Origin: Candidatus Woesebacteria bacterium RBG_16_42_24
GTDB lineage: Bacteria; Patescibacteriota; Microgenomatia; UBA8517
Reading direction: 5' to 3'
Length of the DNA stretch: 64,000 nucleotides
NCBI GenBank assembly: GCA_001792115.1
Contig: MGFX01000001.1
Span: 5,847-69,846 of the forward strand
The notes below the pieces were generated by a model. That model did no database searches, had not been told where the DNA came from, and saw nothing but the letters and a program-made list of their open reading frames with translations. Both the position numbers and the translations under genes were made by a program. Positions 5,914 to 39,979 of this stretch are shown here, piece after piece (position 1 is the stretch's first letter; every line of letters begins with the position of its first letter).

Positions 5914-5966
5914 AATTGTAGGTTACCAGAAAATTAGGATATCAGGAATAGAGACTAGAATATCAG

Positions 5967-6365
5967 CTAATTAGGTTTTTTTAGATTTGCTTGCTTTTCT
6001 TTAATATAGTTGATAAATCCATTTATTCCTTTAATTAATCCCTCATAGCTTTCGATAAGTTCGTCTGTCCTTTTTGGCAACAAGTATCTTTTCCCCTCCA
6101 TTTTTCTTAAATGGCTTTGCGTCTCTGCGGCTTCTCTCCTGGCCAGATAAAAAGATTTCATCTTGTCATTGTAGTAATAGGTTGAATAACCTTCGGCTAT
6201 GGCATCAACCACTGAAGATGACGACCTTTCGGCTTGATCTTGTATTCGAAATTTTTCCTCTCTGGGTAAAACTCTACAAATTTCGTGTATCTGAAGCATT
6301 AGCTTGTAGGCAATCTGCCATATTTGAAGTTTCTCAAACCCCACCCGAGTTCTCATTTTGTGCAA
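5967..6365 (-). CDS. Four-helix-bundle protein of the 23S rRNA intervening-sequence protein family (TIGR02436/PF05635-like), copy 1 of 3
   Basis: The 132-aa sequence has the family hallmarks (..QIHEICRVLPREEKFRIQDQAERSSSSVVDAIAEGY..YYLARREAAETQSHL). Flanked by GATATC-type repeat arrays. Confidence 0.7.
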   Translation of the reverse strand: MHKMRTRVGFEKLQIWQIAYKLMLQIHEICRVLPREEKFRIQDQAERSSSSVVDAIAEGYSTYYYNDKMKSFYLARREAAETQSHLRKMEGKRYLLPKRTDELIESYEGLIKGINGFINYIKEKQANLKKPN

Positions 6366-6470
6366 TTATCTGTTCTCCTGATATCCTAAATCCTATCCCT
6401 GATCCCCTAATATCCTGGTATCCTAACTCTGATACCCCGCTAATCTGATATCCTCTGTCTTTGTCTCCCC
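6366..6470. repeat. Low-complexity repeat array (CTGATATCCT / ATCCTAA units). Inverse counterpart AGGATATCAGG...GAATATCAG lies at 5930-5966 on the other side of the four-helix-bundle gene.
   Basis: Direct reading: cctgatatcctaaatcctatccctgatcccctaatatcctggtatcctaactctgataccccgctaatctgatatcct. Confidence 0.5.
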
Positions 6471-6641
6471 TACGGCCCCCTCAATTTTCCCAACTTGATT
6501 ATTCCCCTCTTTAAATGCAATTATCGGTCCTAACGCATCTTTTTCTTGTTCCAATATCTCCCTGTCCCGCGGAGGGAAAATCGCGAGGGCGCTTATAACC
6601 CCAATCAAATAGCCAATCGTAAATAAAGCAAAAAAAACCAT
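6423..6641 (-). CDS. Small membrane protein, hypothetical
   Basis: 72-aa ORF with one TM helix (VFFALFTIGYLIGVISALAIF). The overlapping + ORF 6074..6448 is antisense to the four-helix-bundle gene. Confidence 0.3.
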   Translation of the reverse strand: MVFFALFTIGYLIGVISALAIFPPRDREILEQEKDALGPIIAFKEGNNQVGKIEGAVGETKTEDIRLAGYQS

Positions 6642-6824
6642 AAAGCTATCCTAGGGCAGCAAAAACTCAAATTATTTAACTTAAGAAGGCAGATTCTGTC
6701 CTAACACTTTATTAAACCGTGAAGCAATATCTGTCAACCAATCGTAGTATATCAAATTATATCTTAGATGTACAAATATTTCTCCCCCTCACAACGATAC
6801 GGGATCGTCAAATCAATTCTAGGC

Positions 6825-7076
6825 TTAAGTCAGCTTTAGAAGTAAAAAATAGACGAGTATGGAGATTATAAATATTGCAAGCGTAACCCCCGTCCCAGTC
6901 CAAAAGAGCGTATTGTTTCTGGTTAAAACCTTATCCCTTAGTCCATCCTTTGCCAAAGCACTATCATATTTCAAAGAAGACGGGGACGAGCGATCGGGGA
7001 CCTTTGGAGGCTTACTCCTGACTTTCTCTATTTCAAGCGGTGCATTAAGGGGAATATTGGGTACAACTGGCGGCAT
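6825..7076 (-). CDS. Small hypothetical protein with a C-terminal TM helix
   Basis: 83-aa ORF, co-oriented with neighbours. The competing + ORF 6859..7083 looks less protein-like. Confidence 0.25.
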   Translation of the reverse strand: MPPVVPNIPLNAPLEIEKVRSKPPKVPDRSSPSSLKYDSALAKDGLRDKVLTRNNTLFWTGTGVTLAIFIISILVYFLLLKLT

Positions 7077-7088
7077 AGCTTAATGACA

Positions 7089-7514
7089 TTAACCTTGCTG
7101 CTCTTCAACTTTGGGTATTTCGTCCCGAGTATAACCTGCCAAAATTTCCTTAACCATATTGACTACTTGCTTGGGTTCAAATTCGCTCTTGACTATATAT
7201 TTAACCGCTCCTTTAGTCATAGCATTTTCAGCGTCTTTTTGCCCAGCCAAGTTTGTGAGTATCACGACGGGCAGACTCTTGGTTTCAGGATCGGTTTTGA
7301 GTTTGGTCAATACTTCAAAACCGTTCATTTTGGGCATCATAATGTCCAAAAGAATAAGATTGGGACGGCCGCTTCGAACCTTAGCCAAACCATCCTCTCC
7401 ATTATCGGCAGTGTCTACTTCGTAGCCCTCAAAAGAGAAAATCTTTTGATACATCCTACTCATTAAGGGGTCGTCTTCTATTATTAATACCTTAGCCATG
7501 AATGTGTTTTTCAA
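7089..7514 (-). CDS. Single-domain response regulator (CheY-like receiver)
   Basis: KVLIIEDDPLMSRMYQKIF..LILLDIMMPKMNGFEVL..VVILTNLAGQKD: phospho-acceptor Asp and receiver fold motifs. Confidence 0.85.
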   Translation of the reverse strand: MKNTFMAKVLIIEDDPLMSRMYQKIFSFEGYEVDTADNGEDGLAKVRSGRPNLILLDIMMPKMNGFEVLTKLKTDPETKSLPVVILTNLAGQKDAENAMTKGAVKYIVKSEFEPKQVVNMVKEILAGYTRDEIPKVEEQQG

Positions 7515-7860
7515 TCTCCTCTATGAGCTTTTCGGGCGGGTTATTGACCTTAACCAAATATCCATTTGCACCGAGCTCTATGGCTTTTTTGTAAGATTCA
7601 GTGTCGCTTAGATTGGTGAGCATTATGACCTCGCAGTCCTTGGTTTTCGGATCGCCCTTAAGCTCCTTAAGAACCACAAAACCGTCCATTTCCGGCATCA
7701 TGATGTCACAAAGGATTAAGTCGGGCTTTGACTCTTTGGCTTTTTCAAGGCCTTCCTTGCCGCTCCCGGCCATATCTACTTCGTATTTGCCTAGCGCGAA
7801 GAGTCTAGCGTAAAACCTGAGAACGTAGGGGTCGTCTTCAATAATTAGAATCCTCGACAT
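7492..7860 (-). CDS. Single-domain response regulator (CheY-like receiver)
   Basis: ILIIEDDPYVLRFYARLF..LILCDIMMPEMDGFVVL..VIMLTNLSDTES. Confidence 0.85.
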   Translation of the reverse strand: MSRILIIEDDPYVLRFYARLFALGKYEVDMAGSGKEGLEKAKESKPDLILCDIMMPEMDGFVVLKELKGDPKTKDCEVIMLTNLSDTESYKKAIELGANGYLVKVNNPPEKLIEEIEKHIHG

Positions 7861-7883
7861 TTTTTATATTTTAATTGCCAACC

Positions 7884-9770
7884 CTAATCTTTTGCAATAG
7901 GGAGTGTGAAATAAAAATTTGAACCCTTATCCTCTACGCTTTCTTCAAGTCCAATCGTCCCTCCCATCCCCACGACCATGAGCTTACTGATATAAAGACC
8001 TAGGCCGGTTCCCTTAGTGGTATCTCGAGTATAAAGACTCTCCCCCGCCTGCTGAAATTTTCTAAATAGAAGGGTTTGATTCTTAATGGAAATTCCCCTC
8101 CCGGTATCGATCACATTAATTTTAAGTTGGCTATCTTTTTCGACAAGGTTAATGGTTACACTTCCCTTTTCGGTGTACTTTATCCCATTTCCGATTAGGT
8201 TTATAAGCACCTCTTTGACCTTCTCGCTATCAGCGGCTACTAAAGGAGGTTTTTTCTTTGGCTCGAGAAACTTGAGCTCAAGTTTCTTTTGCTCTGCCGA
8301 GGAAACAAGCTCTTCCAAAACAGTCTTAATTGTCCCAGCAACATCGACTTTTTCTTTCTTAAATTCTATCCTCCCCTGCTCGAGTCGCGAGAGGTTCAAG
8401 AAATCGTTGACTATGTCAATCAAACGAATGCTTGAGGCGTGGATATCGTCTATTATATTTACGAATTCTGGGTCTTTGACTTTCTTGATAAAGTAGTCTC
8501 TGATAAGAGCCGTATTACCCCTAATGGCAGTTAGGGGCGTCCTAAGCTCGTGGCTGGCAATTGAAAAGAATTCGTCTTTGGAGCGCTCCAAGACCTTGGC
8601 CTCGGTTACGTCTCCAACGAGGATAATCGCCCCAACTATACTTCCGTTTGCCAAAGTTACCGGAACTACGAATAGCTCAAGAAACTTAGCCCCCCAGGAA
8701 AGTGCTCCAATAAAGACCGATTTTTGCTCTTGAGAAATTACCTTTTTAAAGTTTCCTCTCAAGTCAAAGCTTTCGCCCAAAAGACCCTGGAGGGTGTCGA
8801 GTGTCCAGCCTTCTTTTGGTGCTTTCCCAAAAATTTCTGTCAGTAATTTATTGGTGAGAACTACATTGCCACCAACGTCGGTTAGTATAAAACCTCGAGG
8901 AAGGCTCTCGATTGAGGCCAAAAGCTTGGCTTTCTCCTCGGCCAGCTCCTTGGTTCGCTCGGCGACTTCTTTCTCAATCACAAGTTTTGCTTCTTTATCG
9001 ACTGTTGCGTCCCTGAATACCTTAACGGCTCCTATTAACTTACCCCCAGAGATAAGGGGGGCTGTAATTGACACAATTGGGAATTTCCTGCCGGAAGCCG
9101 TCAGATAGTAGTGGTTGTCCTCAAGGTTTGTAATAATCGGCTTCTTTGTTTCTACTACCTGGACAAATGAACGTTCACCAATGGGTACTTCTTGGTCTCC
9201 CTTTAGTGTCTTAACTAACTCCGACCAGCTTTTGCCAATAGCCACCTGCCCCTTAAGTTCTAGAAGCTCCTCGGCTATGGGATTTAGCATGGTGACGCGC
9301 TTTTGGATATCAACAACCAAGAGCCCCTCTCCCATAGAAGAAACAATAAGCTGAATTCTGTCGCGCTCAGATTTAAGTGCTTGCTCGACCCCGCGTAGTC
9401 TCTCCCCGGCATACTTTCCCTGCAAAAGTCTCCCTTGGGCTTCTCTGAGCTTTCCTACAAATATTCCAATAAGTATTAATCCTATGTTGGGTACAATATT
9501 TGGCAAGAGAAATTCGCTTAGGCTCGTCCCTTCAACCGCATTTAGCAAAAGAAAATTTATTGGAAAGACAATTATCCCCCCGAATAACCCTCCCCAGCTG
9601 CCAAAAAGGTAGCCCGCCGAGATCGGAATGAGGCCGGAGAAAAGGAAGACTCCCGTTCCTACCCTGGCAAAAAACAAGAAGAAAAGTAGTAAAAAAACTC
9701 CCGCCAAGACAAGGACAATTACTAATTTGGTTAGCAGGTTTAAGCTCTTGGGGGCAGCATTATCTTTCAT
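7884..9770 (-). CDS. Membrane sensor histidine kinase with PAS/GAF-type sensory domains
   Basis: N-terminal TM helices; H-box FFSIASHELRTPLTAIRGNTALI; HATPase_c motifs NLIGNGIKYT...DTGRGI...GTGLGLYISK. Confidence 0.85.
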   Translation of the reverse strand: MKDNAAPKSLNLLTKLVIVLVLAGVFLLLFFLFFARVGTGVFLFSGLIPISAGYLFGSWGGLFGGIIVFPINFLLLNAVEGTSLSEFLLPNIVPNIGLILIGIFVGKLREAQGRLLQGKYAGERLRGVEQALKSERDRIQLIVSSMGEGLLVVDIQKRVTMLNPIAEELLELKGQVAIGKSWSELVKTLKGDQEVPIGERSFVQVVETKKPIITNLEDNHYYLTASGRKFPIVSITAPLISGGKLIGAVKVFRDATVDKEAKLVIEKEVAERTKELAEEKAKLLASIESLPRGFILTDVGGNVVLTNKLLTEIFGKAPKEGWTLDTLQGLLGESFDLRGNFKKVISQEQKSVFIGALSWGAKFLELFVVPVTLANGSIVGAIILVGDVTEAKVLERSKDEFFSIASHELRTPLTAIRGNTALIRDYFIKKVKDPEFVNIIDDIHASSIRLIDIVNDFLNLSRLEQGRIEFKKEKVDVAGTIKTVLEELVSSAEQKKLELKFLEPKKKPPLVAADSEKVKEVLINLIGNGIKYTEKGSVTINLVEKDSQLKINVIDTGRGISIKNQTLLFRKFQQAGESLYTRDTTKGTGLGLYISKLMVVGMGGTIGLEESVEDKGSNFYFTLPIAKD

Positions 9771-11338
9771 TTGAGCTGGCGAGTAATATAATTTGATATT
9801 AAGTATGTGGGCAAGATTGAAATGACAATTAGAAGAGCAGATATCAAGAAAGTGAGTTCAATCGAACGTCCGGCGGCAGCCAGAACCGAGTAAGCGGGCT
9901 TGCCTGTAAAGATCATCCCCACCGTCACCTCGTCTATATCCTTTAAAGGCTGATATGAAGCGAAATATTGTCGATTAAGGAGCGTAGTCAAAAGGGTTTT
10001 CTTCCCTCCTTTGGCAAGAACCTCACCCAAAACCTCTTTATTTGTTTCCTTAATCCCAATTGGCCGCCCTTTCCCTGATAAATCTGTAATCGTTGCGGCA
10101 GAAAGTGTATCTCCCCCAAAAACTGCCGCCTCAAGGCCCGTTGCCTTTTTGACCCCATCCATAAAAGCATTGTCTATTGATATACCAACCAGAACCGCCC
10201 CGATGATACCCTTTTCATCCTTAATGGGTACTGCCGCTCGCAGCAAAACTTCAGGGGCAAAAGCTCCGTCCTTTGTTATTATCGAAGTGTGTTCCTCTCC
10301 CAAAAGCGACCTTTTGGCCAACGAGTCGTCCGATAAGGAATCCCCCGTTCTCTCCCTCTCCTCTCCTCGAGCGACAACCTTGCCATCTGCATCCAAAATA
10401 ATTACGGAGCTTACTTTATTATCAAGGAGCGTCTCTTCGGCAAGCCCCGCAAGCACGGCTTTATCATCTGCCGCAATTGCGCTACCCGATAGTTGGTTTT
10501 GTGATAGTGTCAGGGCAATCGATTTTGCCTCGGAGGCTTTGGCGTCAAGAGCAAAGGATAAAATAGAGGCGTCTGTTTCGAGCCCGGATAGGGTTTCGTC
10601 CTGCATATTTTTTAGAAGTAAGAAGGTAAAAGAAACCGCGGTCAAGAGAAAAATGGCAAGTATCGTGCTCGTGAGGATAATAAAAAGCTGGGTATTTATG
10701 CGCTTAAGTAAGTAAGAAAATGCCCACCCAAAAAGGATAACAAAGGCAAAAGCCGCTATTAAGTGCTCTATTATCCAAAGTATCCCGAATGGTGCAACGA
10801 TTTCATAAATGTCGATGTTTGAAGTCCCCACAAAAAGGCCGCGCAGGGCAAGTAACTCATAAATAGCCAAGACGAAAAATCCTAGGCTGACCCTTTTTAA
10901 ATGGTGCTCCAAACCAATTGCTACTTTTCTTAAATAAAGCCAGCCGACGCCTGCCGCAAGAACCGGCTGGGCCAAAGAAGCTATCGGCAAAAACCAGAGA
11001 GATTTTGCCTCTTTGGCTCCTTTCGGGGCTAGTTGGGTATCCTCTACCAGAAGACCTATGGCAACAAGTATATAGCCCAATGTCCTCAAGAAGGTTACGA
11101 GAACGGCATTGAGATCACTCGAAAGTACAGAGCTTTCGAGGAGGGTCGCCTCGAGTTGGGTGGCGTGGAGTAAGAAAGAAAGAGATAGGAGCAAAAATCC
11201 TGCCACCTTGAGGCCATCTTTCAGATTTTTCTTTGGCCGCCAGACGTCAAAATAGAGCCAAAAAATAGAAAACAGCGAGAGTGCCCCAAACGCATTTAGG
11301 GCAAAGTGAAAATTTTCAAAAATAAAAGGCTTCCACAT
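9767..11338 (-). CDS. 7TM membrane sensor-domain protein (no kinase output), translationally coupled to the histidine kinase
   Basis: About seven N-terminal TM helices, then a soluble domain with a terminal TM (LTFLISALLIVISILPTYLI). The stop overlaps the HK start (ATGA). Confidence 0.55.
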   Translation of the reverse strand: MWKPFIFENFHFALNAFGALSLFSIFWLYFDVWRPKKNLKDGLKVAGFLLLSLSFLLHATQLEATLLESSVLSSDLNAVLVTFLRTLGYILVAIGLLVEDTQLAPKGAKEAKSLWFLPIASLAQPVLAAGVGWLYLRKVAIGLEHHLKRVSLGFFVLAIYELLALRGLFVGTSNIDIYEIVAPFGILWIIEHLIAAFAFVILFGWAFSYLLKRINTQLFIILTSTILAIFLLTAVSFTFLLLKNMQDETLSGLETDASILSFALDAKASEAKSIALTLSQNQLSGSAIAADDKAVLAGLAEETLLDNKVSSVIILDADGKVVARGEERERTGDSLSDDSLAKRSLLGEEHTSIITKDGAFAPEVLLRAAVPIKDEKGIIGAVLVGISIDNAFMDGVKKATGLEAAVFGGDTLSAATITDLSGKGRPIGIKETNKEVLGEVLAKGGKKTLLTTLLNRQYFASYQPLKDIDEVTVGMIFTGKPAYSVLAAAGRSIELTFLISALLIVISILPTYLISNYITRQLK

Positions 11339-11388
11339 GGTGTTAACTTAAAACTCAAATGTCAAAACTCAAAAGTATATCTAAAAAC

Positions 11389-11790
11389 TCAAAACCTTCT
11401 GTTTTTTAAAGTTATAATGCTCGATCCGAGCATCTTTGAAATCTCGTCAACTTCTCTTAATAGAGAATCGACTTTTACTTTGTCAAGGGAAGTTGTATCA
11501 CGAAGGAGATTCAACCAATAATTAGTTTCGTTGGCCGATTTTAAAGCTATCTCGTAGAACTTTATGAAATCCTTTCGAGAACTCGATGCCTTTGCCTCAA
11601 TTACGTTTGCACCGATTGAAGTAGCACATCTTAAAAGTTGATCTGAAATAATCCTATTAGATCTTTTAGTGGGCAGGGAATCAATAAAAGTGATTATATT
11701 TATTGAAAACTGGTAGCTACGGTGTCTTAAATCAGTTTTAAGATTTGAGTTCAAATTTTGAACTTTGAGTTTTGAGTTTTGAGATTCCAT
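11389..11790 (-). CDS. Four-helix-bundle protein (23S rRNA IVS protein family), copy 2. The true start is probably downstream of the repeat-encoded N-terminus.
   Basis: ..LLRCATSIGANVIEAKASSSRKDFIKFYEIALKSANETNYWLNLL.. typical of TIGR02436. The N-terminal MESQNSKLKVQNLNSNLKT is encoded by (TTTGAGTTTTGAG)n repeats. Flanked by inverted arrays: AAAACTCAAA x3 at 11340-11388 and TTTGAGTTTT x3 at 11745-11790. Confidence 0.7.
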   Translation of the reverse strand: MESQNSKLKVQNLNSNLKTDLRHRSYQFSINIITFIDSLPTKRSNRIISDQLLRCATSIGANVIEAKASSSRKDFIKFYEIALKSANETNYWLNLLRDTTSLDKVKVDSLLREVDEISKMLGSSIITLKNRRF

Positions 11791-11794
11791 ATAT

Positions 11795-13987
11795 TCAGTC
11801 TAGCAAATTATCGACCAACTCGTCTTTAGTTAAAAATCCAACCGCAACCTTTTGAACCACCCCTTTTCTATCGAGAAAAACGTGGCTCGGGAAATGTCTG
11901 ATTCCCAAATCCTGAATCAAAAGCCCGTCAGGGTCGGCCACAATATTTAGCTTGTAACCTCCCCTTTTCTTAAATGTTTCTATCTTACTTCTCCCCTCTT
12001 GTTCGGCTACAGCATAGACATTAACACTCTCATAATCTTGGGAAAATGCTTCAAGTGCTCCAATCTGATCTGAAGTTGTAGGCACCCACGTTGAAACAAA
12101 ACTTATGACCGTGGGTTTGCCTAAGATTGAAATATTAGAAACTGTCGTCTCTTGTGTTTCTAGAACAAAATCGGGTAAGACACTCCCTACAGCTTTATTA
12201 TCACCCAAAAGTTCTGTAGTTAGCTGGCTCGTCTCAAACTCGTCAACCCTACTTCTGAAATCTGGTAAACCAATAAATAATCCGCCCAGGGAAATTCCCA
12301 AGCTTTTTTCCAGAACGAAATTTTGATTCACTGGAGTTGGCTTATTAAGCTCAAAGATACTGCTTCTTACACCCTTAAATCCCGAGGCGCTTACGTCTAG
12401 GTAATATTTGCCAGAAGGCAAAATGAGTTTGTAGGCGCCGTCGGCGTCAGTCTTTTGGGGATTTTCCTGACCAAAAGCTTCCCCATCCCAAAGTAAAAAC
12501 TTACCGAGAGTCGGCTCATATATAAATACCGAAACTACTGCCTCAACTTGGTAATCACCTGAAGCCATAACTTTCCCGGCAGGTAGAGAAATGATAGTTG
12601 CCAGTTTTTCTTCGGTAATATTTTGCGCTCCATCTACCGACTTTGTGGTGAGGAAAAAAGTTCCCTCTTTGGCAAAGCTTAGTACCCCTTTCCAAAATCC
12701 GGATTCTACATTCTTAACCATTGAAAATAGCTGCGAATCAGAAAATAAATCAAGAGAAACGGGCCCCCCGGAGGCGGAAAGGGTAACAGAAGTATCCAGG
12801 CCCGTTATGGTTTTAATGACCCCGGAAGAATCGGGAGTCAGAATCATCGGGCCAAGCGAAAAAAGGGCACCGCCGACTTGCGGCGGAAGTCTATCTATAA
12901 TTAGGGTGTATTCTTTGGAGGTAACTTTATTGCCGCTGGGGTCCGTCGCCCTTACTTTAATTTTGTAATTACCGTCGTCGATAATTTCCGGTGTAAACTC
13001 AAAGGTTGTTGATTTTGCTCCGATTGCCCCAAAATCGTCAACTGGAAGCCAGTTTCTTCCACCATCGATAGAATATTCAACTTGAGTTACCCCAACGTCA
13101 TCGCTAGCCTTACCGCTGATTGTGGGAGACTGGCTAAATACTCCCGACAAATCGGTCGTTATAGAAACTGCAGGCAGGCTTGTGTCTGTAGCAGTTTTTG
13201 TTACCGTAGTTGTGGTCGTGGTTGTGGTGGTAACTGTAGTCGAGGCTTTTGATGATACAAAAGTATTATCATTTGTTTCCGTCGAATTACCATCTGCATC
13301 CGCGCTTTGAATACTATAATGGTATGTTGTGTTTGAAGAAAGACCTGTCACCTCAACGCTGTGTGAGGTAACGAGAGTTGAATCACTTTTAGTCGAACCG
13401 TAGCTTGCAGTTGTTCCATAATTAACGACTGAAGTTGCAGCCTCATCGGTAGTCCAGGTTATTTTAACCGACGTTTGTGATACATCGGTAATTGTAAGGC
13501 TGGAAATTGTTGGGGGGTTAACATCGGCAGGAGTAGAAGATATTGCAACAGAAAAGCTTCCTGTACATGTTGTAGGGTTGCTTCCGTCAGAAGAATCTGA
13601 AGCTTGAACAGTCCAGGAAGCAGCAGCAACAGCACTACTCCCCGTGGATACGCTCACATTAAAATCTTTAGTCGAGCTTCCTGGAAAATTACCGGAGGTA
13701 AAGCGAATTACAGTTCCTGAATCAATGGTTGCGGTCATACCATCGGCAGATCCATCAGTTATAGTAAAATTTGATGAAGGTGCTGTGAACTTTAGCCAGA
13801 CAATTGCATTGGAGTCGTTATTGTTTAAAGTAAACGTCAGGTTGGGCGAGGCATTTATTAATACCGTCGTAGGATCAACTTCTCCATCGCAAGATGAAAT
13901 TGCAGCTTTTGATACTTTAGAAGCGAAATTAAAAATAACCAAGACAAGGACAAGTAATAAGCACGCGAATAACCTCAACTTGGGCAT
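11795..13987 (-). CDS. Secreted multidomain protein: signal peptide, fibronectin-III-like domain, poly-Thr linker, Ig-like/CarboxypepD-like domains, and a C-terminal TlpA/redoxin-like domain that has lost both CXXC cysteines
   Basis: N-terminal signal MPKLRLFACLLLVLVLVIF. FN3-like PPTISSLTITDVSQTSVKITWTTDEAATSVVNYGTT...TTYHYSIQSADADGN. TTTTTTTTTVTKT linker. C-terminal GKPTVISFVSTWVPTTSDQ aligns with the TlpA motif GKPVLLNFWATWCPPCR, with Cys replaced by Val and Thr. Confidence 0.7.
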   Translation of the reverse strand: MPKLRLFACLLLVLVLVIFNFASKVSKAAISSCDGEVDPTTVLINASPNLTFTLNNNDSNAIVWLKFTAPSSNFTITDGSADGMTATIDSGTVIRFTSGNFPGSSTKDFNVSVSTGSSAVAAASWTVQASDSSDGSNPTTCTGSFSVAISSTPADVNPPTISSLTITDVSQTSVKITWTTDEAATSVVNYGTTASYGSTKSDSTLVTSHSVEVTGLSSNTTYHYSIQSADADGNSTETNDNTFVSSKASTTVTTTTTTTTTVTKTATDTSLPAVSITTDLSGVFSQSPTISGKASDDVGVTQVEYSIDGGRNWLPVDDFGAIGAKSTTFEFTPEIIDDGNYKIKVRATDPSGNKVTSKEYTLIIDRLPPQVGGALFSLGPMILTPDSSGVIKTITGLDTSVTLSASGGPVSLDLFSDSQLFSMVKNVESGFWKGVLSFAKEGTFFLTTKSVDGAQNITEEKLATIISLPAGKVMASGDYQVEAVVSVFIYEPTLGKFLLWDGEAFGQENPQKTDADGAYKLILPSGKYYLDVSASGFKGVRSSIFELNKPTPVNQNFVLEKSLGISLGGLFIGLPDFRSRVDEFETSQLTTELLGDNKAVGSVLPDFVLETQETTVSNISILGKPTVISFVSTWVPTTSDQIGALEAFSQDYESVNVYAVAEQEGRSKIETFKKRGGYKLNIVADPDGLLIQDLGIRHFPSHVFLDRKGVVQKVAVGFLTKDELVDNLLD

Positions 13988-15354: not shown

Positions 15355-18300
15355 TTACCCTCCTTTTTTCTTCTTTTTATTTAAAAACGATAAATATTTT
15401 GAAATAACAGGCAATGCCAACAAAAGAATCAGCGTTTTCTCGGGTACTACGGCAAATTCAAAATTAGTCCCTTCCCTCAATACCACGCCTATTTGTGAAC
15501 TTCCCGCACCACTTAAGGGACCGGAAATCTGCCCCAAATGATCTGCGCTACCGCTCCATCCCCAATCACTTTCACTCCCCCAGAAAATAGTTGTCGCGTC
15601 AGTTGATTTTAGATATGCCTTCTCATTAGTATCCTTGATTACGCTCGCGTAAAGATCTGAATTTGACGAATCGTAAGTGATTGTAGCCGAGGTAATATTT
15701 GTTTGGCTTGTCCACGGATCTGGCTCATCCGTCCAAGTAGGAAGGCAGTCCGCCGTGTCACAATCCGCAAAATAAACAGGGGGCTGGCTGGATTCCAAAG
15801 CATCATAATAAACAAGCTTGCAGTTCGTCGAGGATGGACAAGCAAGAGCAGATCTGGTCGGTGGATTTTCCAAATCAATAACGCTTCCAGAGGCACAAGC
15901 CGCACTATCGCAGTCGAAAAAATATTGATCTTCAGGGGAGGCTGTATTTCCTACATAAACTCCCTTACAATCATTTGCTCCATTACTACAATCAAGATCA
16001 ACGCCAAATGTAGTTAAACCTCCCGCAGTATCATCAATTTTGGTTATGGTATAATTGGCAGACGTGCAAGTTGCATCTCCGCAATCTACAAAATTAAATT
16101 CAAGCTGGCTTCCGTCCGCATAGATTAATTTGCAGTCAGTTGCCCCCGGAGTACAATCAATTGCGTTGGGAACATTAACTGAGGTTCCTCCAACATCCGT
16201 ATCGATATCAAGCTCGGTTCTGGAAGCACAAGTCGTAGAGGCGGTGCAGTCAATCAATGTAAGATCTCCCTCAACTGCGTCATGGTAGAGTATTTTGCAA
16301 TCATCTGCCGCAGGGCACCAAATAGAGTTTTTTGCATTTGAATTTGTTGTATTAATATTTAAAGAAATAGCAGTTAAAGCATCTCTCGTCGAACAGTTCG
16401 CATTTGAGCAGTCAGCAAACCATAAATCGTCAGTATCGTCTTCAAAAAAAACAACTTTGCAGTCAGTATCCCCCATACAATATAAAGAAGTGTTAGGCTT
16501 AGAAGTACTACCTCCCAAATCTCCATTGATATCCCCCTGGCTCGGAGCAGAACAAGTTTCATCATTACAATCTATAAGACTCACATCAGGACTATTTCCT
16601 CCTAAAAGATCCCCGTGTGCGATCTTACAATTGTTAGAAGTTACGCAAAATAAGGCTGGTGAAGGGGCATTAGTTGCGCTTCCTGTATCGGAATCTATGA
16701 CCCTTGGAGTACCGGAGCCAAAAGTCGAACAGTTTTCATCATCGCAGTCGACAAACACAAGATCAGGCCCAGCAGTTTCTAGGTTATCCACATAAACCAC
16801 TTTACAATTAGCCGGATCAGAAGTTGGACACCAAATATCCATTTCTGTATCTTGTTCGTCTCCGGATGAACCTGTGTCTGAGTCTATTAAAAACTCTGCA
16901 ATGTCTGCGGTACAACAGGAATAAAGTCTTGTATTTTGGTTAGTCGAAGTGTCAACGCTTAACGCCCAAATATTTGTACCGTCAGTAGTTACCGAGTAAA
17001 TAGTGTCTGTAACTGAACCAATGGTTTGATTATTCCTTCTCCATTCATCTCTCGAAGCATCATACTTGGCAAATGAAAGGTCTGTTCCGTCCTGAAACAC
17101 AACGGCAGCACTGGTTGCATCAAGTCCAACCAAGACCGGCCTATCTCCCGAAGTTAAACCAGCCCCTTGTGTTCCAAAGGTTACATTCCCAGTAACAACT
17201 GAGGTTGTGTTTCCGCTGCAAGACCCATCTAGACCCGCAATCTCAAAAGCGTTTATCTCAGCATCTCCACCGGTTGTATCCGAATAGGCGATGAGAACGC
17301 TAGTATCTGAAAACTGGGCAACTGAAGTCATAAACGTATTTCCAATAGCCCCAGCCTCTATGCTGGTCTGGCAAAGGGTTCCCTGTGCATCAGAACTTGC
17401 AGTATCAATTCGACGCCCTTCTGACCTATCTGCTCCATCATCTATCCACCAAACATGGATTATATTGTTGGAAACAGCTATTGAGGGATTATAATTATCT
17501 GTATCTCCGTCATCCACAGTAACCGCCGGATCCCAAGACAGCCCGTCTGAAGATTTCTTAAAAAAGATTCTTCCCCCCGTTGAGGCAGTACACGTTACTG
17601 CGTCGCAGTTATAAAATGCGTACCAGTTTCCATTTACATAGGCTACTTTCCTTTGCAGCCCGCCGTACTGAACTTCCCCTTCCTCTATTCCTCCAGAAAC
17701 TATTACCGAAGGATCGATTGAAATTGGGAAAACTCGCTCTTTCGCCGAAAGCCATGAGCCAAAATTTTGGCCAAAACTTTTTATAAGTCTATAGCCTATT
17801 TTGTCTTTCTCTAAACTAAAATCAATATCGTAGCTCACCTCGCCCATTGCATCTTTGGCAAAGGGTTGGGAAAACTTAAACAATTCCTCCCCTTCTTTAC
17901 TATAAAATCCAAAAGCTTCTGAATTTGGCGATACTATTTTTACGTCTGTGGTTTTCACAGATTGTATTATCGAAGCAGATGAGGAAAGTGAAGAGGAATC
18001 CTTTAATATAAATTCTTCAATCAATACATTACCTGCAATAGAATATTTTAAATCAACACCCTCAATTACTTCCTCATAAACAACTTCTTTATTTGAATAT
18101 ATTTTTGATTCCGAGGGAAAAGCTTTCTTGCCACCAATAGATAAAGTCTCAAATTCTACTTCACGACCATCGGCCTTAATTCTTACTCTGGGCTCTTTAT
18201 GGAATATAAACTCTATCTGTTTACCGCTCTTGGCGGTTTTAACAATCGCTCTTGGCGTGTCAATCTGGCGTGTAGAAGCATTTTTTAAAATTGTCTCTTT

Positions 18301-21195
18301 ATTGGAAGGATTTTTTGCCTCTGTAACTTCGTCGGAATGTGAAGCACTCAATAGATCCTGGGCTGTTCTAAGGTTTGGTTCTGAGGCGTAAGCAAGGTTG
18401 GATACTGGAATAAAGGGAGAAATAGCGGCCAAAATTGAACTCAGTGACAAAAGTAGGGATAAAGCAAAGTTCCCAAGTTTTCTTTTATTTCTCGGCAAAA
18501 TTCTGAAGTTGTCAAAGCGAGAGTTGGCAGTAGCCAGGGATAGATAAGGGTTTAGGGAGTTAGGGTTTAGCCTGCCTGCCGGCAAGGCAGGGGTATTGGC
18601 ATTAGGTTTTAGACTAAACCCTAGACCCCAGTGCCTAGCACCTAGTGTCTGCAAAGCAGGTGCCCTTCCGGGCAAAATCCCTGATATGAATCTGTAGAAT
18701 CTGCCCCTGGTAAAGATGTCTGTGATACGTCCTGTCTTGGGGGTTCTAAACCAAGGTCCTTCGCTTTTTTCCAGGAAACCTTTTAAGGAGGCGTAGGCTT
18801 GGAAGGGAACGAGAATGTAGGATAATGCCACAAATGAGGCAAGACCTGCATAGTCTTTTTCTTCCGACTCCTCAAGAAATAGTCCCACGGCATTCATTAG
18901 AGGTAGGGCCAGTAAGTTGGTTAAGACCAGACTCCAGCCCCAGAGCTCTGTCCAGAAGGGCAGGTGGGCTCTAAAGACGGTTTCAGAGACAAGCCAGGAG
19001 AGGGTTCCCACCAGGAAGAAGAAGGCCTGGAGGTAGTAAGGGGAAAGGTAAAGGAATTCGAGCTTTTCACTAAAAGATAGAGGGGAAGGAATCCAGCTCT
19101 TTGACGATGGAGGATGGGGGGTAGAAGATAGTGGTTGAGGATTGAGGTTAGAAGATTGACTTTCTACCTTCAAACTTCTACCTTCTACCCCCACATTCAA
19201 TCCTCTACCTTCTACCGTCGAATCTTCCCAGTGTCCAAACATCAGTCTCACAAACATCCTTTTAATGTTGTTTGAGTGTCCTTCTGCCCATCTCATTCTT
19301 TGCCTGACTAGTCTTTTAATGGTGGAGACACACTCGGCAGGGGCTTGGATGTAAGGGGTATAGACCACTTTGTAGCCAGCTTCGTAGAGTTTTAGGGTCA
19401 GTTCAAAGTCCTCGGTGATTGAAGTTTCCCAGCCTACTTCTTCTAAGACATCTCTTCTGATCATATAGACCGATCCTGAAATCTGTTTAAGGCCTGAATA
19501 GATTTCAGTTCCTGAACGCTCAATGACGTATGAACCGGCATACTCACTCCTTACTCCCCTGGTTATCCAGTTCTCGGACTTATTTAAGACGTGCCACTGG
19601 TAACCTTGCACCGCAGCTATGCGCTGCCCGTGATCCGTAATTTGTAATTCGTCATTCGCAGTTTTATTCGGTTTACTATTTACGGATGACTGTTTACTTT
19701 TGGCGAAGTCTAACGAGCCTGCAGTTACCTGGAAGTACTTAAGGAATAGTGTCAGGGTGTCAGGATACGGTACAAAGTCTGCGTCAAAGACAGAAACGAA
19801 TTCTGCCCTGGGGTCTGTATGGATTAGAGCCTCCCTTAATGCCCCACCTTTAAACCCCGAGCGGGAGGTCCGATGCAGGTGCTTAACTATTACTCCCGGG
19901 GCTACCTCTACCGAGCTTAACGTCCAGCCCTCCCCCCCTCTGAATTTGGAATTTGGAATTTGGAATTTTCCAAGATAATCAGAGATTATCTTGGATGTCC
20001 CATCTGTCGAGTCGTCGCAGAGAATTACCTCATACTCTCCTTCATAGTCAAAGCTGGTTGAGGCGTTGATTAGTCTTTCAACTACATTCTTCTCGTTATA
20101 AAGGGGTATATGGATGGAGATAAAGGGGTGTCTAGTTAGTCTTACATGCTCAAGGTTTGCTTCCAGTCCTCCGGCTTTTGTCAAATTAGCTTGTTTCTTG
20201 TCGTTTGCCTTCCTGCCACCCAGACCCAAAAGCCAAGTCAATAGACTTTTTCCTCTGGCTTCAATCCCAATTTCACCTTCCCCTTTTCCTTCTTGGCTGA
20301 ATGACAAGACTAGTGCCAAAGTTAGATAGTATTTAAGAGAGTAGAGGAAGAAAACTGAACCTATCAAAAGAGCAACCGTGGCAAAAAAAAGTCCAGCGCT
20401 ACCCATACCTGCTTTTTCGGCAGTTGTTACCACATACCCAAAGAACCCAGTTAAGAAGATTGTTGCCCCAAAAGAAAGAGAAAACGCAGTCAATATTCTG
20501 ATTACTTTCTTGCGAGTTTCGTGGGAAAGTGCAAAAAACTGCCCTACTCTCCCTAAAACGGCCGCGATTGTCCTTATCTGTGGAGTGATTTGGCCTTGAG
20601 CGAATAAGAATCTTTTTTCAAAAGTAGAAAGGTCGCTCCTTCTAAGTATGTTCTGCACCCCATGATGGCTAAGGATAGGGTGAACCCCGACCTTGGGAAG
20701 ATTTTGAACTATTTTTCTAACGCCGTACTTAGGATATTTAGAAACTAGAGACTTAACGGCCTCTTCGTATAGCTGGGGAGCCTGTCTAAAATACCTTTTA
20801 ACCTGCGGAATTTGATCGCTAACGGCCATTATCCTTTTATCCGGCGCCAGTTGATACCTTTTGATCCACTTATAAATAGTGTTTCGAGAAACTTCGTATT
20901 CTTTGGCAAGCGAAGATATATCTTTTTCTTTAGCTAAAGCAGCCTCAACCATCCTGAATCTCTCGAGAGAAGAGAGTTTTCTAAACACAATTTTCTTTGG
21001 GGTTTGAGATTTTCGAGGTCGGCCTCCGATCTTAAAACTTAATCCATTCTCTCCATACCTTCTATATCTATTCAGCCATCTATAAAAAATCGTGCGTGAG
21101 ATTTGATACTTTCCACAAATAGAAGATACGCTCTCACCTTCAAGAGCTCTTTTAATAAGCTCAATTCTTTGCTTAGCTGAATATTTAGGCTGCAT
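15355..21195 (-). CDS. Giant 1946-aa fusion protein: transposase-type HTH domains, TM, processive family-2 glycosyltransferase (DxD, QRMRW) with post-catalytic TM bundle, signal-anchor, extracellular Asp-box (BNR) region, seven ~45-aa Cys-rich repeats, and a C-terminal PEP-CTERM-like sorting tail (VVPEK-TLILLLALPVISKYLSFL-NKKKKKGG)
   Basis: HTH: SVSSICGKYQISRTIFYRWLNRY and ISSLAKEYEVSRNTIYKWIKRYQ. GT2: ILCDDSTDGT, VFDADFVP, RLVRQRMRWAEGH. Asp-box SSDGLSW. Repeats of the form C..NCK[VLI][VI]Y....[FL].DC....C seven times. Tail compared with the PEP-CTERM consensus VPEPSTLALLGLGLL..RRRK. Confidence 0.8.
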   Translation of the reverse strand: MQPKYSAKQRIELIKRALEGESVSSICGKYQISRTIFYRWLNRYRRYGENGLSFKIGGRPRKSQTPKKIVFRKLSSLERFRMVEAALAKEKDISSLAKEYEVSRNTIYKWIKRYQLAPDKRIMAVSDQIPQVKRYFRQAPQLYEEAVKSLVSKYPKYGVRKIVQNLPKVGVHPILSHHGVQNILRRSDLSTFEKRFLFAQGQITPQIRTIAAVLGRVGQFFALSHETRKKVIRILTAFSLSFGATIFLTGFFGYVVTTAEKAGMGSAGLFFATVALLIGSVFFLYSLKYYLTLALVLSFSQEGKGEGEIGIEARGKSLLTWLLGLGGRKANDKKQANLTKAGGLEANLEHVRLTRHPFISIHIPLYNEKNVVERLINASTSFDYEGEYEVILCDDSTDGTSKIISDYLGKFQIPNSKFRGGEGWTLSSVEVAPGVIVKHLHRTSRSGFKGGALREALIHTDPRAEFVSVFDADFVPYPDTLTLFLKYFQVTAGSLDFAKSKQSSVNSKPNKTANDELQITDHGQRIAAVQGYQWHVLNKSENWITRGVRSEYAGSYVIERSGTEIYSGLKQISGSVYMIRRDVLEEVGWETSITEDFELTLKLYEAGYKVVYTPYIQAPAECVSTIKRLVRQRMRWAEGHSNNIKRMFVRLMFGHWEDSTVEGRGLNVGVEGRSLKVESQSSNLNPQPLSSTPHPPSSKSWIPSPLSFSEKLEFLYLSPYYLQAFFFLVGTLSWLVSETVFRAHLPFWTELWGWSLVLTNLLALPLMNAVGLFLEESEEKDYAGLASFVALSYILVPFQAYASLKGFLEKSEGPWFRTPKTGRITDIFTRGRFYRFISGILPGRAPALQTLGARHWGLGFSLKPNANTPALPAGRLNPNSLNPYLSLATANSRFDNFRILPRNKRKLGNFALSLLLSLSSILAAISPFIPVSNLAYASEPNLRTAQDLLSASHSDEVTEAKNPSNKETILKNASTRQIDTPRAIVKTAKSGKQIEFIFHKEPRVRIKADGREVEFETLSIGGKKAFPSESKIYSNKEVVYEEVIEGVDLKYSIAGNVLIEEFILKDSSSLSSSASIIQSVKTTDVKIVSPNSEAFGFYSKEGEELFKFSQPFAKDAMGEVSYDIDFSLEKDKIGYRLIKSFGQNFGSWLSAKERVFPISIDPSVIVSGGIEEGEVQYGGLQRKVAYVNGNWYAFYNCDAVTCTASTGGRIFFKKSSDGLSWDPAVTVDDGDTDNYNPSIAVSNNIIHVWWIDDGADRSEGRRIDTASSDAQGTLCQTSIEAGAIGNTFMTSVAQFSDTSVLIAYSDTTGGDAEINAFEIAGLDGSCSGNTTSVVTGNVTFGTQGAGLTSGDRPVLVGLDATSAAVVFQDGTDLSFAKYDASRDEWRRNNQTIGSVTDTIYSVTTDGTNIWALSVDTSTNQNTRLYSCCTADIAEFLIDSDTGSSGDEQDTEMDIWCPTSDPANCKVVYVDNLETAGPDLVFVDCDDENCSTFGSGTPRVIDSDTGSATNAPSPALFCVTSNNCKIAHGDLLGGNSPDVSLIDCNDETCSAPSQGDINGDLGGSTSKPNTSLYCMGDTDCKVVFFEDDTDDLWFADCSNANCSTRDALTAISLNINTTNSNAKNSIWCPAADDCKILYHDAVEGDLTLIDCTASTTCASRTELDIDTDVGGTSVNVPNAIDCTPGATDCKLIYADGSQLEFNFVDCGDATCTSANYTITKIDDTAGGLTTFGVDLDCSNGANDCKGVYVGNTASPEDQYFFDCDSAACASGSVIDLENPPTRSALACPSSTNCKLVYYDALESSQPPVYFADCDTADCLPTWTDEPDPWTSQTNITSATITYDSSNSDLYASVIKDTNEKAYLKSTDATTIFWGSESDWGWSGSADHLGQISGPLSGAGSSQIGVVLREGTNFEFAVVPEKTLILLLALPVISKYLSFLNKKKKKGG
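19621..19700. repeat. In-frame 75-80 bp MITE-like insertion inside the GT2-coding region of the giant gene. It is made of left-end-like and right-end-like sequences of the 21205-21665 four-helix-bundle cassette, and is absent from the paralog at 1121-1180.
   Basis: ccgtaatttgtaattcgtcattcgca resembles cgtaatccgtaatctgtcattcgtca (21214-21239). tcggtttactatttacggatgactg resembles tcggattacgatttacggatgacgg (21638-21662). It adds ~20 aa (..SKPNKTANDELQITDHGQR..) without breaking the frame. Confidence 0.55.
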
Positions 21196-21204: not shown

Positions 21205-21665
21205 TTTAAGTTCGTAATCCGTAATCTGTCATTCGTCACCCGGATACAAGCTCAGATTACGAATCGTCATCTTTTTTTCTTTTCTCTGTTGAACGTATCA
21301 ACCCACTTATTAACTGAAATCCTTGATTTATTTTGTCTATTAAAGATTGAAATTCATCACCTGTAAGGAAATTTAGGTCTTTAGCTAATATAAGAAAATT
21401 TTGTACCTCTGCGTTTGAGCCACGAGCCTGATAATAAAAACGTATCTTATCAGCGAAATGATATCTCCCCCAGCCTTCCGCTATGTTGGCAGTCACAGAA
21501 GATGCCGCCCTTCGAAGCTGGTCAATAAGACCAAATCTTTCACTATTAGGGAATTTCCTCGTAAGTCTATAAATGGCGACAGCCACATCGTGGTTAACTC
21601 TCCAAGCATCAAGATCAGAAAAATGCATGTTTTTCTTCGGATTACGATTTACGGATGACGGATTA
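21205..21665. mobile_element. Small cassette carrying four-helix-bundle gene copy 3, bounded by related ~26-bp terminal sequences. Candidate non-autonomous IVS-like mobile element.
   Basis: Left end TTCGTAATCCGTAATCTGTCATTCGTCACC (21209-21240) plus internal inverted copy GATTACGAATCGTCATC. Right end GGATTACGATTTACGGATGACGG (21640-21662). A deletion derivative of both ends lies at 19621-19700. Confidence 0.5.
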
Positions 21666-21670
21666 TTCAT
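21257..21670 (-). CDS. Four-helix-bundle protein (23S rRNA IVS protein family), copy 3
   Basis: ..WRVNHDVAVAIYRLTRKFPNSERFGLIDQLRRAASSVTANIAEGWGRYHFADKIRFYYQARGSNAEVQNFLILAKDL.. matches the TIGR02436-type family. Confidence 0.75.
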   Translation of the reverse strand: MNNPSSVNRNPKKNMHFSDLDAWRVNHDVAVAIYRLTRKFPNSERFGLIDQLRRAASSVTANIAEGWGRYHFADKIRFYYQARGSNAEVQNFLILAKDLNFLTGDEFQSLIDKINQGFQLISGLIRSTEKRKKDDDS

Positions 21671-22309: not shown

Positions 22310-22440
22310 TACGGGTCTGCGCAGCTCAAATTATATCAGATTTCGGTATTCCAGTATTCTAGTCAGACGGTGTACCGGTTAACCGGTCAACTGGTTTACT
22401 GACTTACCGGAATACCGGGTTACTGGACTACTGGATTACT
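22310..22440. repeat. Low-complexity array of TACCGG/TACTGGA-type units
   Basis: ccggttaaccggtcaactggtttactgacttaccggaataccgggttactggactactggattactgaag. Confidence 0.4.
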
Positions 22441-39389: not shown

Positions 39390-39518
39390 ACTGTTCTGGC
39401 GATGACCTATTTTCGCGATCCGTTGCCGGATAACTATCGTTGGCGCTGAGGCGTTTTACGTCCCTGTTCGGAATGGGAAAGGGTAGTTCCACCTCGCTAA
39501 AATCACCAGAACGGTGCC
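39390..39518 (-). rRNA. rrf: 5S ribosomal RNA
   Basis: The minus strand reads ..GCACCGTTCTGGTGATTTTAGCGAGGTGGAACTACCCTTTCCCATTCCGAACAGGGACGTAAAACGCCTCAGCGCCAACGATAGT...CATCGCCAGAACAGTGC. Helix I pairs the termini, and the CCGAAC loop-B motif is present. The ends are approximate. Confidence 0.7.
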
Positions 39519-39584
39519 CTCAAATATAATTTGTACTCTCAAAACTGAAGAGAAAAGCCATCTCTCACGCTCCGCGTGAGAATT

Positions 39585-39680
39585 TCCAATTTCCAAATAC
39601 CAAATTCCAAATAAATTCTAAATTTCTAATTTCGAAATTCGAAAATTAAATGGAAACTGGAGACTGGAATCTGGAAACTC
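39585..39680. repeat. AT-rich repeat element in the 23S-5S spacer (AATTTCCAATTTCCAAATACC...AATTCGAA...TGGAGACTGGAA), followed by the hairpin CTCGTGCGAGGCACGAGAG
   Basis: Direct comparison with 23596-23700. Confidence 0.4.
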
Positions 39681-39815
39681 TCGTGCGAGGCACGAGAGAA
39701 TAGTTTTCTTCGACCGATTCGCACAGGTAAGCTTAAACCCTTACGGGTCTTCCACATCCTGCCGATTAACCCCGTCTTCTTCGGGGGGTCTATAACGAGT
39801 CCTAATCTTAGGGGG

Positions 39816-39848
<33 letters not shown>

Positions 39849-39979
39849 CTTAGGAACATAGCTACCCGGCGATGCTACTGACGTAACAACCGGCACACCA
39901 GAGGTTCCTCCAGCCTGGTCCTCTCGTACTGAGGCCAGCTCCCTTCAAGACTCGAACGATTCCACCGGATAGAGTCCGA

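Follow-up and report, generated by a model that had tools for sequence, protein, structure and literature searches.

A 64,000-nucleotide stretch of the genome of Candidatus Woesebacteria bacterium RBG_16_42_24 (contig MGFX01000001.1; hereafter the window, with a G+C content of 43.6%) carries three minus-strand genes, here designated c1, c2 and c3, that encode four-helix-bundle proteins of the PF05635/TIGR02436 family. Each open reading frame (ORF) is enclosed by a pair of imperfect, inverted arms of 35-57 nt, composed of short tandem units that are mostly 7 nt long. It is believed, with a probability of about 0.7, that each gene is the cargo of a selfish cassette of 440-540 nt of the intervening sequence (IVS) type known from rRNA genes, which would be expressed by read-through from its host transcript and, by analogy, cut by RNase III. 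This reading draws on the anatomy of the cassettes and the fold and charge of their protein, the specific association of arms and gene family, and the way in which the two arms co-vary. It also draws on the gain and loss seen at one orthologous site, on sequence homology that is confined to the cassette, and on the occurrence of ORF-less derivatives.

Anatomy of the three cassettes

The three genes, which score 83.7, 92.9 and 117.7 bits against Pfam PF05635 (cut-off 33.8) and 81.7, 106 and 110.7 bits against TIGR02436 (cut-off 24), are arranged with their arms as follows.

5919-5966, minus strand: c1 3' arm, units TAGGATATCAG / TAGAATATCAG
5967-6365, minus strand: c1 four-helix-bundle gene (PF05635, E = 1e-23)
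6378-6454, minus strand: c1 5' arm, four CTGATATCCT-type units
11345-11395, minus strand: c2 3' arm, sense-strand units GAGTTTT
11389-11790, minus strand: c2 four-helix-bundle gene (PF05635, E = 2e-26)
11734-11786, minus strand: c2 5' arm, (AAAACTC)n within codons 2-19, reading SQNSKLKVQNLNSNLKT
21211-21249, minus strand: c3 3' arm, CGTAATCCGTAATC...
21257-21670, minus strand: c3 four-helix-bundle gene (PF05635, E = 3e-34)
21631-21665, minus strand: c3 5' arm, GGATTACGATTTACGGATGACGGATTA

A preliminary description of this DNA had proposed that inverted arrays of short repeats flank all three genes, each gene with a repeat unit of its own, and both points are borne out, the units being of the CTGATATCCT type for c1, AAAACTC for c2 and CGTAATC for c3. 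The paired portions of the arms are 77% complementary over 48 nt for c1 (5919-5966 versus 6378-6425), 76% over 49 nt for c2 (11347-11395 versus 11735-11783) and 74% over 35 nt for c3 (21215-21249 versus 21631-21665). Flank complementarity was scored by aligning the 5' flank of each ORF locally, in inverted orientation, with its 3' flank, RNAduplex energies having been dropped as too noisy, since long gapped duplexes score well by chance. By this measure c1, c2 and c3 score 21, 19 and 13, above the maxima of 1000 shuffles each (16.5, 16 and 11.5), and occupy ranks 1, 2 and 3 among the 50 ORFs of the window (median 7.5). The placement of the arrays outside the genes, as first described, is correct for c1, while in c2 and c3 the annotated ORF includes the 5' arm, which in c2 encodes residues 1-19. 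Both c2 arms exhibit a period of 7 in Tandem Repeats Finder, and the units within the arms are degenerate, with an identity of only 68-77%. Folding, which had been recommended as a check, closes each of the three ORFs in a terminal stem in the sense RNA, in minimum free energy and centroid structures alike, and c1-c3 thereby possess the long terminal stem enclosing the rest of the element that characterizes rRNA IVSs.

The cassettes fit tightly between their neighbours. The 3' arm of c1 stops 6 nt short of the next gene's ATG (5913), and its 5' arm extends over the 3' terminus of a 72-aa ORF located upstream (6423-6641); c1 itself may start at a TTG at 6365 preceded by AGGAG, or at an ATG at 6356. 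The ATG of c2 is located 4 nt past the stop codon of an upstream 730-aa gene (g730), and its 3' arm ends 6 nt before the ATG (11338) of a Cache-sensor gene. For c3, whose true start is probably an internal ATG at 21628, about 16 nt separate the 3' arm from the ATG (21195) of a 1946-aa ORF. The median distance from the stop codon of a four-helix-bundle gene to the start of the next ORF is 60 nt, which barely accommodates a 3' arm. The three cassettes occur singly, 5-10 kb apart, among housekeeping-type genes, their neighbours encoding a Cache sensor, an AhpC/Ig protein, a GT2 protein and a membrane protein of unknown kind.

The AlphaFold model of c2 (predicted local distance difference test, pLDDT, 86), a monomer, comprises helices at residues 21-37, 43-68, 72-97 and 104-130, preceded by a leader (residues 1-18) that is predicted to be disordered (pLDDT < 50). 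A Foldseek search with this model returned 2RLD (BT_0352; E = 2e-7, TM score 0.74-0.91), 2GSC (XCC0516) and then Avd (4DWL, 8UB7), a protein of diversity-generating retroelements (DGRs), all crystal entries with five chains, and the c3 sequence matches 2GSC at 1e-18. The family is basic, with a median isoelectric point of 9.66 among 94 members, and its core is strongly conserved (41 invariant columns in 22 sequences), which indicates a functional protein. The leader is of a different nature. The N-termini of c2 relatives all read TQNSKLKTQN.NSK.KT, the in-frame translation of (AAAACTC)n, at a length that is conserved across the family. Conservation by codon position is 0.69/0.70/0.64 over the 20 leader codons compared to 0.76/0.85/0.53 in the core, a pattern according to which the leader is kept as nucleic acid rather than as protein.

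Other identities for these genes were considered and rejected. The defence-system models of PADLOC returned zero matches for c1-c3, and membership of a defence system was ruled out accordingly. Identity with Avd itself is contradicted by scores of 17-25 bits against the equivalog model NF033474 (cut-off 80), and neither a reverse transcriptase nor a template repeat/variable repeat (TR/VR) pair was found among the immediate neighbours of c1-c3.

Paired arms across genomes

A search with c2 yielded 1730 relatives at E <= 1e-5. The survey, restricted to one genome per species, covered 80 c2-like loci (1.06 Mb) and the window, i.e., 81 genomes and 1.1 Mb. The loci derive from many Patescibacteria lineages as well as Thermodesulfovibrionales, Omnitrophota, Dehalococcoidia, Nitrospirae and Bacteroidales, and c2 relatives in those phyla exhibit 52-74% protein identity. 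An iterated hidden Markov model (HMM) search identified 104 four-helix-bundle genes in the loci and the window, of which 21 from the loci belong to other subfamilies.

The preliminary description had called for a census of whether such genes mostly lack flanking inverted arrays, and the answer is that they mostly possess them. The median flank score is 19 for the four-helix-bundle genes and 8 for 949 other ORFs (Mann-Whitney p = 9e-46), 83 of 102 four-helix-bundle genes exceed the 95th percentile of those 949 ORFs, and 66 of the 69 c2-type genes anchored on a conserved motif score at least 13. For small control ORFs (90-180 aa, n = 269) the 95th percentile is 11.5. Genes of other subfamilies possess arms of other units in 15 of 22 cases, these units being TAGAACA, GTGAAAA, ATCAGGG, CAGACGT, ATTCGTG and ATTGTTC. 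When significant inverted pairs from all loci were compiled as an unbiased list, their loop lengths showed a sharp peak at 300-500 nt, and 40 of the 42 pairs with loops of this size enclose a four-helix-bundle gene, the other two being copies of a GC-rich palindrome. Where a period is clear, it is 7 in 27 of 28 c2-type arms, in 11 of the 15 remaining arms and in 71 of 84 flanks of control ORFs; the strict test used demands a self-match of 80% across 28 nt, so that the degenerate units leave the majority of arms without a class, and it reveals the dominant period only where one is detectable.

Within a cassette the two arms fit each other better than they fit the arms of relatives (20.5 versus 17.4 +/- 0.5), a value reached in 0 of 20000 permutations.

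Of twelve PF05635 genes carried by plasmids of cyanobacteria and Azospirillum, eight are flanked by heptamer arms in inverted orientation (CAGGAGT, GGGTGTA, AAGGGAA, GGACGGA, GGTGACA, AGGAGAT, GGGGAGA and CTGCCCT), two have direct arrays and two are ambiguous. The direct arrays at locus L093 are (TAAAAGC)8 upstream and (TAAAAGCC)10 downstream, and those at L096 are G-rich on both sides. Three plasmid cassettes are located within cas operons, twice between cas6 and cas4 and once between cas10 and cmr3 (L091 Anabaena sp. 90, L093 Pseudanabaena galeata and L098 Picosynechococcus PCC 7003). The '23S rRNA IVP' domain has been listed among CRISPR-linked domains (PMC10910872), a link for which such cassettes may account, reflecting selfish insertion rather than function.

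GC-rich palindromes resembling repetitive extragenic palindromic (REP) sequences were also observed in the AT-rich genomes of CPR (candidate phyla radiation) bacteria, at about 15880-15915 in L024, 8052-8559 in L020 and 5536-5985 in L068. One of them, TCCCGCTTTGCGGGA..., has its place in one L024 cassette copy, where the stop codon precedes it and the 3' arm follows, and TTTCCGCCCAAGGCGGATCCGCCTCTGGCGGAAA occurs in pairs. They constitute a second, unrelated small repeat family.

Gain, loss and ORF-less derivatives

The junction between g730 and g523, the gene downstream of c2, was compared with orthologous junctions of relatives retrieved by a metagenome search with g523.

Window: 442-nt cassette between TGA-ATAT and TTAACACC-ATG
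L082 (g523 70% identity): TAA-AATT-ATG, a 4-nt spacer, empty
L085 (g523 45% identity): 12-nt spacer, empty
L081 (g523 71% identity): 117 nt that include a solo TTTTACAA-type array
L087 (g523 49% identity): another four-helix-bundle cassette, c3-like, its arms being GTATTAA/ATAATAC
L086 (g523 51% identity): an ATPase gene and an ORF-less AATTTCT/AGAAATT hairpin, with the unit of the 23S insertion of the window

The 4-nt distance between the g730 stop codon and the ATG of c2 equals that which separates the downstream gene from the stop codon at the empty site. Nucleotide homology between cassette copies amounts to 80-89% over 412-477 nt and ends exactly at the outer ends of the arms, the flanks being unrelated; this includes two copies in L024 that are 4.5 kb apart. 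Within the species, ten independent assemblies share the same c2 cassette, a single assembly differing by one substitution in 521 nt. ORF-less forms also occur outside the window: L076 (Bacteroidales) contains two empty hairpins, in which the 5' arm is followed by an 18-35-nt loop and the 3' arm, beside one full c2-type cassette, and all three share the non-repeat signature AAAATTACAAT / ATTGTAG. A further empty c2-type hairpin is present in L003. The elements thus combine terminal inverted repeats (TIRs) with presence/absence polymorphism, as TIR elements do, and the suggestion in the preliminary description of a family of tiny IVS-like cassettes is upheld by the orthologous sites that are empty or otherwise filled, the arm-bounded homology, the ORF-less hairpins and the loop spectrum. 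Successive intergenic gaps at 8940-13450 of L076 (MAG JALNZC010000010.1, a metagenome-assembled genome) contain the full c2-type cassette, the two empty hairpins and a second cassette, from another subfamily, with TAGAACA arms, and this region is a local swarm of these elements.

In the window itself, six of seven tandem arrays detected under strict criteria have period 7, and at least six ORF-less array hairpins are present. These hairpins and the solo arrays are listed below.

19122-19216: array hairpin in coding sequence, 95 nt (z = -3.5)
22344-22417, minus strand: ORF-less array hairpin of period 8, adjoining tRNA-Ala(CGC) (z = -5.1)
25188-25221, minus strand: solo perfect (AAAACTC)4.9 array of the c2 unit, in-frame as ENSKLKTQNSK in a 1234-aa ORF
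39581-39679, minus strand: ORF-less heptamer-array hairpin between 5S rRNA and a LAGLIDADG ORF (z = -8.7)
42913-43036, minus strand: ORF-less AATTTCT / AGAAATT array hairpin in the loop of 23S rRNA helix 25 (z = -6.2)
43697-43779, minus strand: ORF-less array hairpin of period 8 in the tRNA-Ala / 23S spacer (z = -7.3)
61990-62055, minus strand: ORF-less array hairpin downstream of a rhodanese gene, one arm c2-like (z = -4.0)
63854-63910, minus strand: solo sequence homologous to the c2-type 5' arm and joined to a membrane-protein ORF at its 5' end

The hairpin at 42913-43036 is an IVS, helix 25 being a classical IVS site. Solo arrays of the cassette units had been described at four places, and the description holds for 25188-25221 and 63854-63910, where the c2 unit is found (13 matches in the window versus 1.55 expected). 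It fails for 62010-62050, which belongs to the ORF-less hairpin at 61990-62055, and for the 23S insertion, whose unit, AATTTCT, is a different one. For the c1 and c3 units no significant enrichment of solo arrays was detected in the window. Across the survey, (AAAACTC)3-like arrays outside cassettes number 42 per 0.98 Mb, while at most 3 were found for 12 of 14 composition-matched permuted units.

The 25188-25221 array, which has no inverted partner nearby, directly precedes the C-terminal transmembrane helix of its 1234-aa ORF (no Pfam match). At 63800-63910, the c2-type 5' arm homologue (reading QNSKLKVQNFNSKLK) is followed by a perfect (AGTGAAT)5.3, both at the 5' end of the ORF at 63311-63883, and the region looks like a cassette remnant that gave this ORF its N-terminus. 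A candidate fourth four-helix-bundle gene at 63602-63901 was rejected, as its tblastn match (E = 6e-5) stems solely from the repeat-encoded leader, the iterated HMM was negative and the product is a membrane protein. The 1946-aa ORF downstream of c3 (15355-21195, minus strand) combines an IS630-type helix-turn-helix with a GT2 glycosyltransferase and ends in a large Cys-rich part, and its GT2 domain contains in-frame heptamer arrays (KFQIPNSKF and ANDELQIT; 18547-18570, 19636-19658 and 19939-19968 are among the array sites). The hairpin at 19122-19216, likewise inside the GT2 domain, supplies residues 660-692 of this protein, just past a QRMRW motif, and a CGTAATT array in the same ORF resembles the c3 arms 1.6 kb away; these internal arrays recall the Rickettsia palindromic elements (RPEs) found in genes. 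Adjacent, near-perfect (TTGGGAT)4.4 and (TTAGAAA)4.3 arrays occupy positions 236-298, and their partner arms would fall outside the window.

The rRNA operon of the window is on the minus strand. A 1.27-kb gap between the 23S and 5S rRNA genes (39394-40785) contains a free-standing LAGLIDADG endonuclease ORF (40111-40614) in addition to the 39581-39679 hairpin. The spacer between the 16S rRNA and tRNA-Ile genes (44666-48346) measures 3.6 kb, an unusual break in an rRNA operon, and carries on the opposite strand a 711-aa ORF for a TraG/VirD4/HerA-like ATPase (46072-48207) and a 127-aa ORF (44986-45369).

Mechanism, related elements and alternative explanations

In the proposed scheme, a cassette consists of a 5' arm, a basic S23p/Avd-like four-helix-bundle ORF and a 3' arm, the arms being composed of mutually complementary, subfamily-specific units. 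No room for a promoter of its own is evident in the cassette, which lies co-oriented in the narrow gap that separates one gene's stop codon from the start codon that follows, or else in an exposed rRNA helix, and it is therefore presumably transcribed by read-through. The arms of the transcript would pair into an imperfect duplex of 35-57 bp, thereby looping out the ORF and bringing the host flanks together. RNase III would cut this duplex, as it does in the IVSs of Coxiella, Leptospira and Salmonella, freeing the four-helix-bundle RNA and leaving the host RNA functional, and such excision would explain why insertions are tolerated in operons and rRNA. The protein may bind its own arms. [quoted passage not shown]

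The closest known relatives are the rRNA IVSs. Those with an S23p/PF05635 ORF are reported from Leptospira, Coxiella burnetii and Brucella (Ralph and McClelland 1993; Afseth 1995; Warrier 2016). The helix-45 IVS of Coxiella 23S rRNA possesses an S23p ORF and a 28-bp terminal stem that is cut by RNase III, with two to three tandem GACAGAT repeats, in a strain-dependent number, just upstream of the start codon and the RNase III cut at the first of them; its authors call the origin of IVSs unknown and cite the mobile-element idea of Ralph and McClelland (Warrier 2016, PMC4990558). Insertions in CPR 16S and 23S rRNA have been found to include 23S_rRNA_IVP ORFs as well as short ORF-less, probably RNase III-type insertions (Tsurumaki et al. 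2024). The kinship of the cassettes with these IVSs is evident from the presence of the same protein family in the loop, terminal inverted repeats forming a long stem, heptamers by the start codon (in Coxiella), a size of about 430-760 nt and co-orientation with the host transcript. The association of the protein family with IVSs that was drawn in the preliminary description is sound, since the helix-25 insertion of the window is an ORF-less array hairpin and heptamers, stem and S23p ORF coincide in the Coxiella IVS (PMC4990558). The differences are that both arms of the cassettes consist almost wholly of repeat units, that there are many subfamilies with units of their own, that ORF-less derivatives and solo arrays are dispersed, and that RNase III excision is known for the IVSs and would operate here by analogy. 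As c1-c3 are located between protein-coding genes and not in helix 9, 25 or 45, they lack the rRNA location that defines the rRNA IVS class and were set outside it; they are best read as IVS-type cassettes outside rRNA.

Small palindromic elements that are co-transcribed with genes include the Correia elements of Neisseria, RPEs, MITEs, and REP sequences and REPINs (PMC3116915). The cassettes resemble them in being short, intergenic and bounded by inverted repeats, in occurring in some cases in frame within genes, as RPEs do, and in having a longer autonomous and a shorter non-autonomous form with the same ends. They differ in their four-helix-bundle cargo, which has no known nuclease or recombinase fold, in ends that are tandem heptamer arrays rather than unique TIRs, and in that no target-site duplication was seen. 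Integron cassettes likewise consist of a promoterless, tightly packed and co-oriented single ORF with a hairpin-forming imperfect inverted repeat, but this is a single 3' attC. The arms on both sides, the single cassettes scattered in operons and rRNA, and the lack of an integrase-linked (intI-adjacent) array led us to reject integron cassette identity. Avd shares the homologous basic four-helix bundle and is pentameric in crystals and part of an RNA-protein complex; the cassette proteins differ from it in scoring far below its equivalog cut-off and in having no neighbouring reverse transcriptase or TR/VR pair.

Heptanucleotide tandem repeats are familiar from cyanobacteria as short tandemly repeated repetitive (STRR) sequences. 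Convergent GGGAATC pairs in Xanthomonas and GGGGAYT heptamer arrays in Nostoc were left unexplained in the report that described them (PMC4692102), and heptamer arrays have also been described in Geobacter (GGACCGG/MTYCTGA; PMC2700814) and Beggiatoaceae (TAACTGA; PMC4679880). These repeats share with the present arrays the period of 7, an intergenic and sometimes genic location, frequent convergent hairpin pairs and variability between close relatives. The present arrays flank PF05635 genes specifically and share signatures with them, a link that the three reports (PMC4692102, PMC2700814, PMC4679880) do not draw, the PF05635 family being absent from them.

Several observations weigh against a selfish, RNase III-processed cassette. 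Cassettes are co-oriented with both neighbours in 88% of cases compared to 77% for adjacent gene pairs overall, an enrichment that is modest (p about 0.01), and c3 does not surpass its shuffles in total fold energy (z = 0.0). The statistical weight comes mostly from one subfamily, that of the 80 c2-like loci, and the arrays of two cyanobacterial copies (L093 Pseudanabaena, L096 Oscillatoria) are direct, not inverted, which makes hairpin formation impossible. Among sense-strand mismatches between the arms, which are mostly transversions, G:U is not preferred over A:C (180 versus 221); there is thus no signature of selection on a sense RNA duplex, and compensatory RNA evolution, whose wobble signature is absent, is not claimed. 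The complementarity of the arms is maintained, and copying of one arm from the other at the DNA level may fit at least as well as selection on RNA. No target-site duplication was detected at eight mapped boundary pairs or between filled and empty junctions, where repeat-made ends blur the boundaries. Neither a transposase nor a recombinase is encoded in the cassette itself, to which the search was confined; its sole ORF, the four-helix bundle, matches no further domain of Pfam or NCBIfam. It follows that we infer mobility, and the way in which the cassettes would move, only from the comparative patterns.

A bolder version of the cassette reading, which we regard as rather unlikely, holds that orphan PF05635 genes mark an unrecognised class of mobile elements in many phyla, in which an Avd-like pentamer would bind its own arms and promote copying, either by hairpin-templated DNA synthesis or through excised RNA and a reverse transcriptase acting in trans. 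DGR reverse transcriptases abound in CPR bacteria and cyanobacteria. The derivatives of such elements would feed the heptamer excess, and ORF-less forms and solo arms would be the source of STRR sequences, the Xanthomonas GGGAATC pairs, the Geobacter and Beggiatoa heptamers and the ORF-less rRNA IVSs.

It is less probable still that the arrays are iteron-like DNA or RNA binding sites of a basic, pentameric protein that acts as a regulator or nucleoid-type factor, serving autoregulation and a dispersed regulon, so that the whole would be a regulatory module and not a selfish element. The subfamily-specific unit that is inherited with the gene, the basic isoelectric points and the enrichment of c2-unit arrays outside cassettes, often just upstream of start codons, agree with this idea, and the heptamer arrays of Geobacter and Beggiatoa were earlier read as regulatory sites (PMC2700814, PMC4679880). 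However, a regulon is hard to apply to hairpins of the same kind in 23S rRNA and in frame within coding sequences, while close relatives have orthologous junctions without any array and different cassettes occupy one junction. Binding and mobility are compatible, as the protein of a mobile element would also bind its own ends.

A resident, vertically inherited gene would require no movement at all: slippage would have generated an mRNA stem for stability or translation control, as a by-product of AT-rich CPR genomes. Heptamer arrays are indeed common genome-wide and also occur beside other ORFs, as the period-7 control flanks attest, a start codon or Shine-Dalgarno sequence lies in or beside an arm, and the cassette is identical in the ten assemblies of the species. 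This explanation is nevertheless very improbable, being largely refuted by the junction and homology patterns, i.e., empty orthologous sites, a cassette of another subfamily at the same junction, and homology that stops at the arm ends amid unrelated flanks within and between genomes. The 52-74% identical proteins in distant phyla, the ORF-less copies with shared arm signatures and the lack of such arms in other small ORFs are equally at odds with it. Finally, a phase-variable contingency locus, in which gain or loss of 7-nt units would shift the frame (c2) or alter the 5' untranslated region (c1, c3) and switch expression on and off, was ruled out and has next to no likelihood: although 7 is not a multiple of 3, the c2 array lies inside the ORF and heptamer number upstream of Coxiella S23p differs by strain (PMC4990558), the c2 arms vary in neither length, unit number nor sequence in the ten assemblies, their degeneracy suppresses slippage, the family keeps a conserved leader length, and the matching inverted copy across the gene is left unexplained.

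Except for the Coxiella IVS description, no literature linking PF05635 to flanking heptamer arrays was found (subscription-only literature was not covered), and in the literature searched we found no earlier description of the general rule that PF05635 genes have paired heptamer-array arms. The cassettes have a recognisable signature, consisting of an arm, a four-helix-bundle ORF and a second arm, with a total length of 0.42-0.55 kb and arms of period 7. Their presence in rRNA and in operons, cas operons included, can create spurious associations in guilt-by-association screens, and ORFs acquire from them pseudo-peptides, encoded by the repeats, at their N-termini, while CPR enzymes acquire in-frame peptides. 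The origin of rRNA IVSs and the function of S23p (open since 1993), the STRR and heptamer repeats (since 1990) and the prokaryotic heptamer excess may be one phenomenon, which, if so, could be tested in carriers that grow in culture, among them Nostoc, Xanthomonas and Azospirillum.

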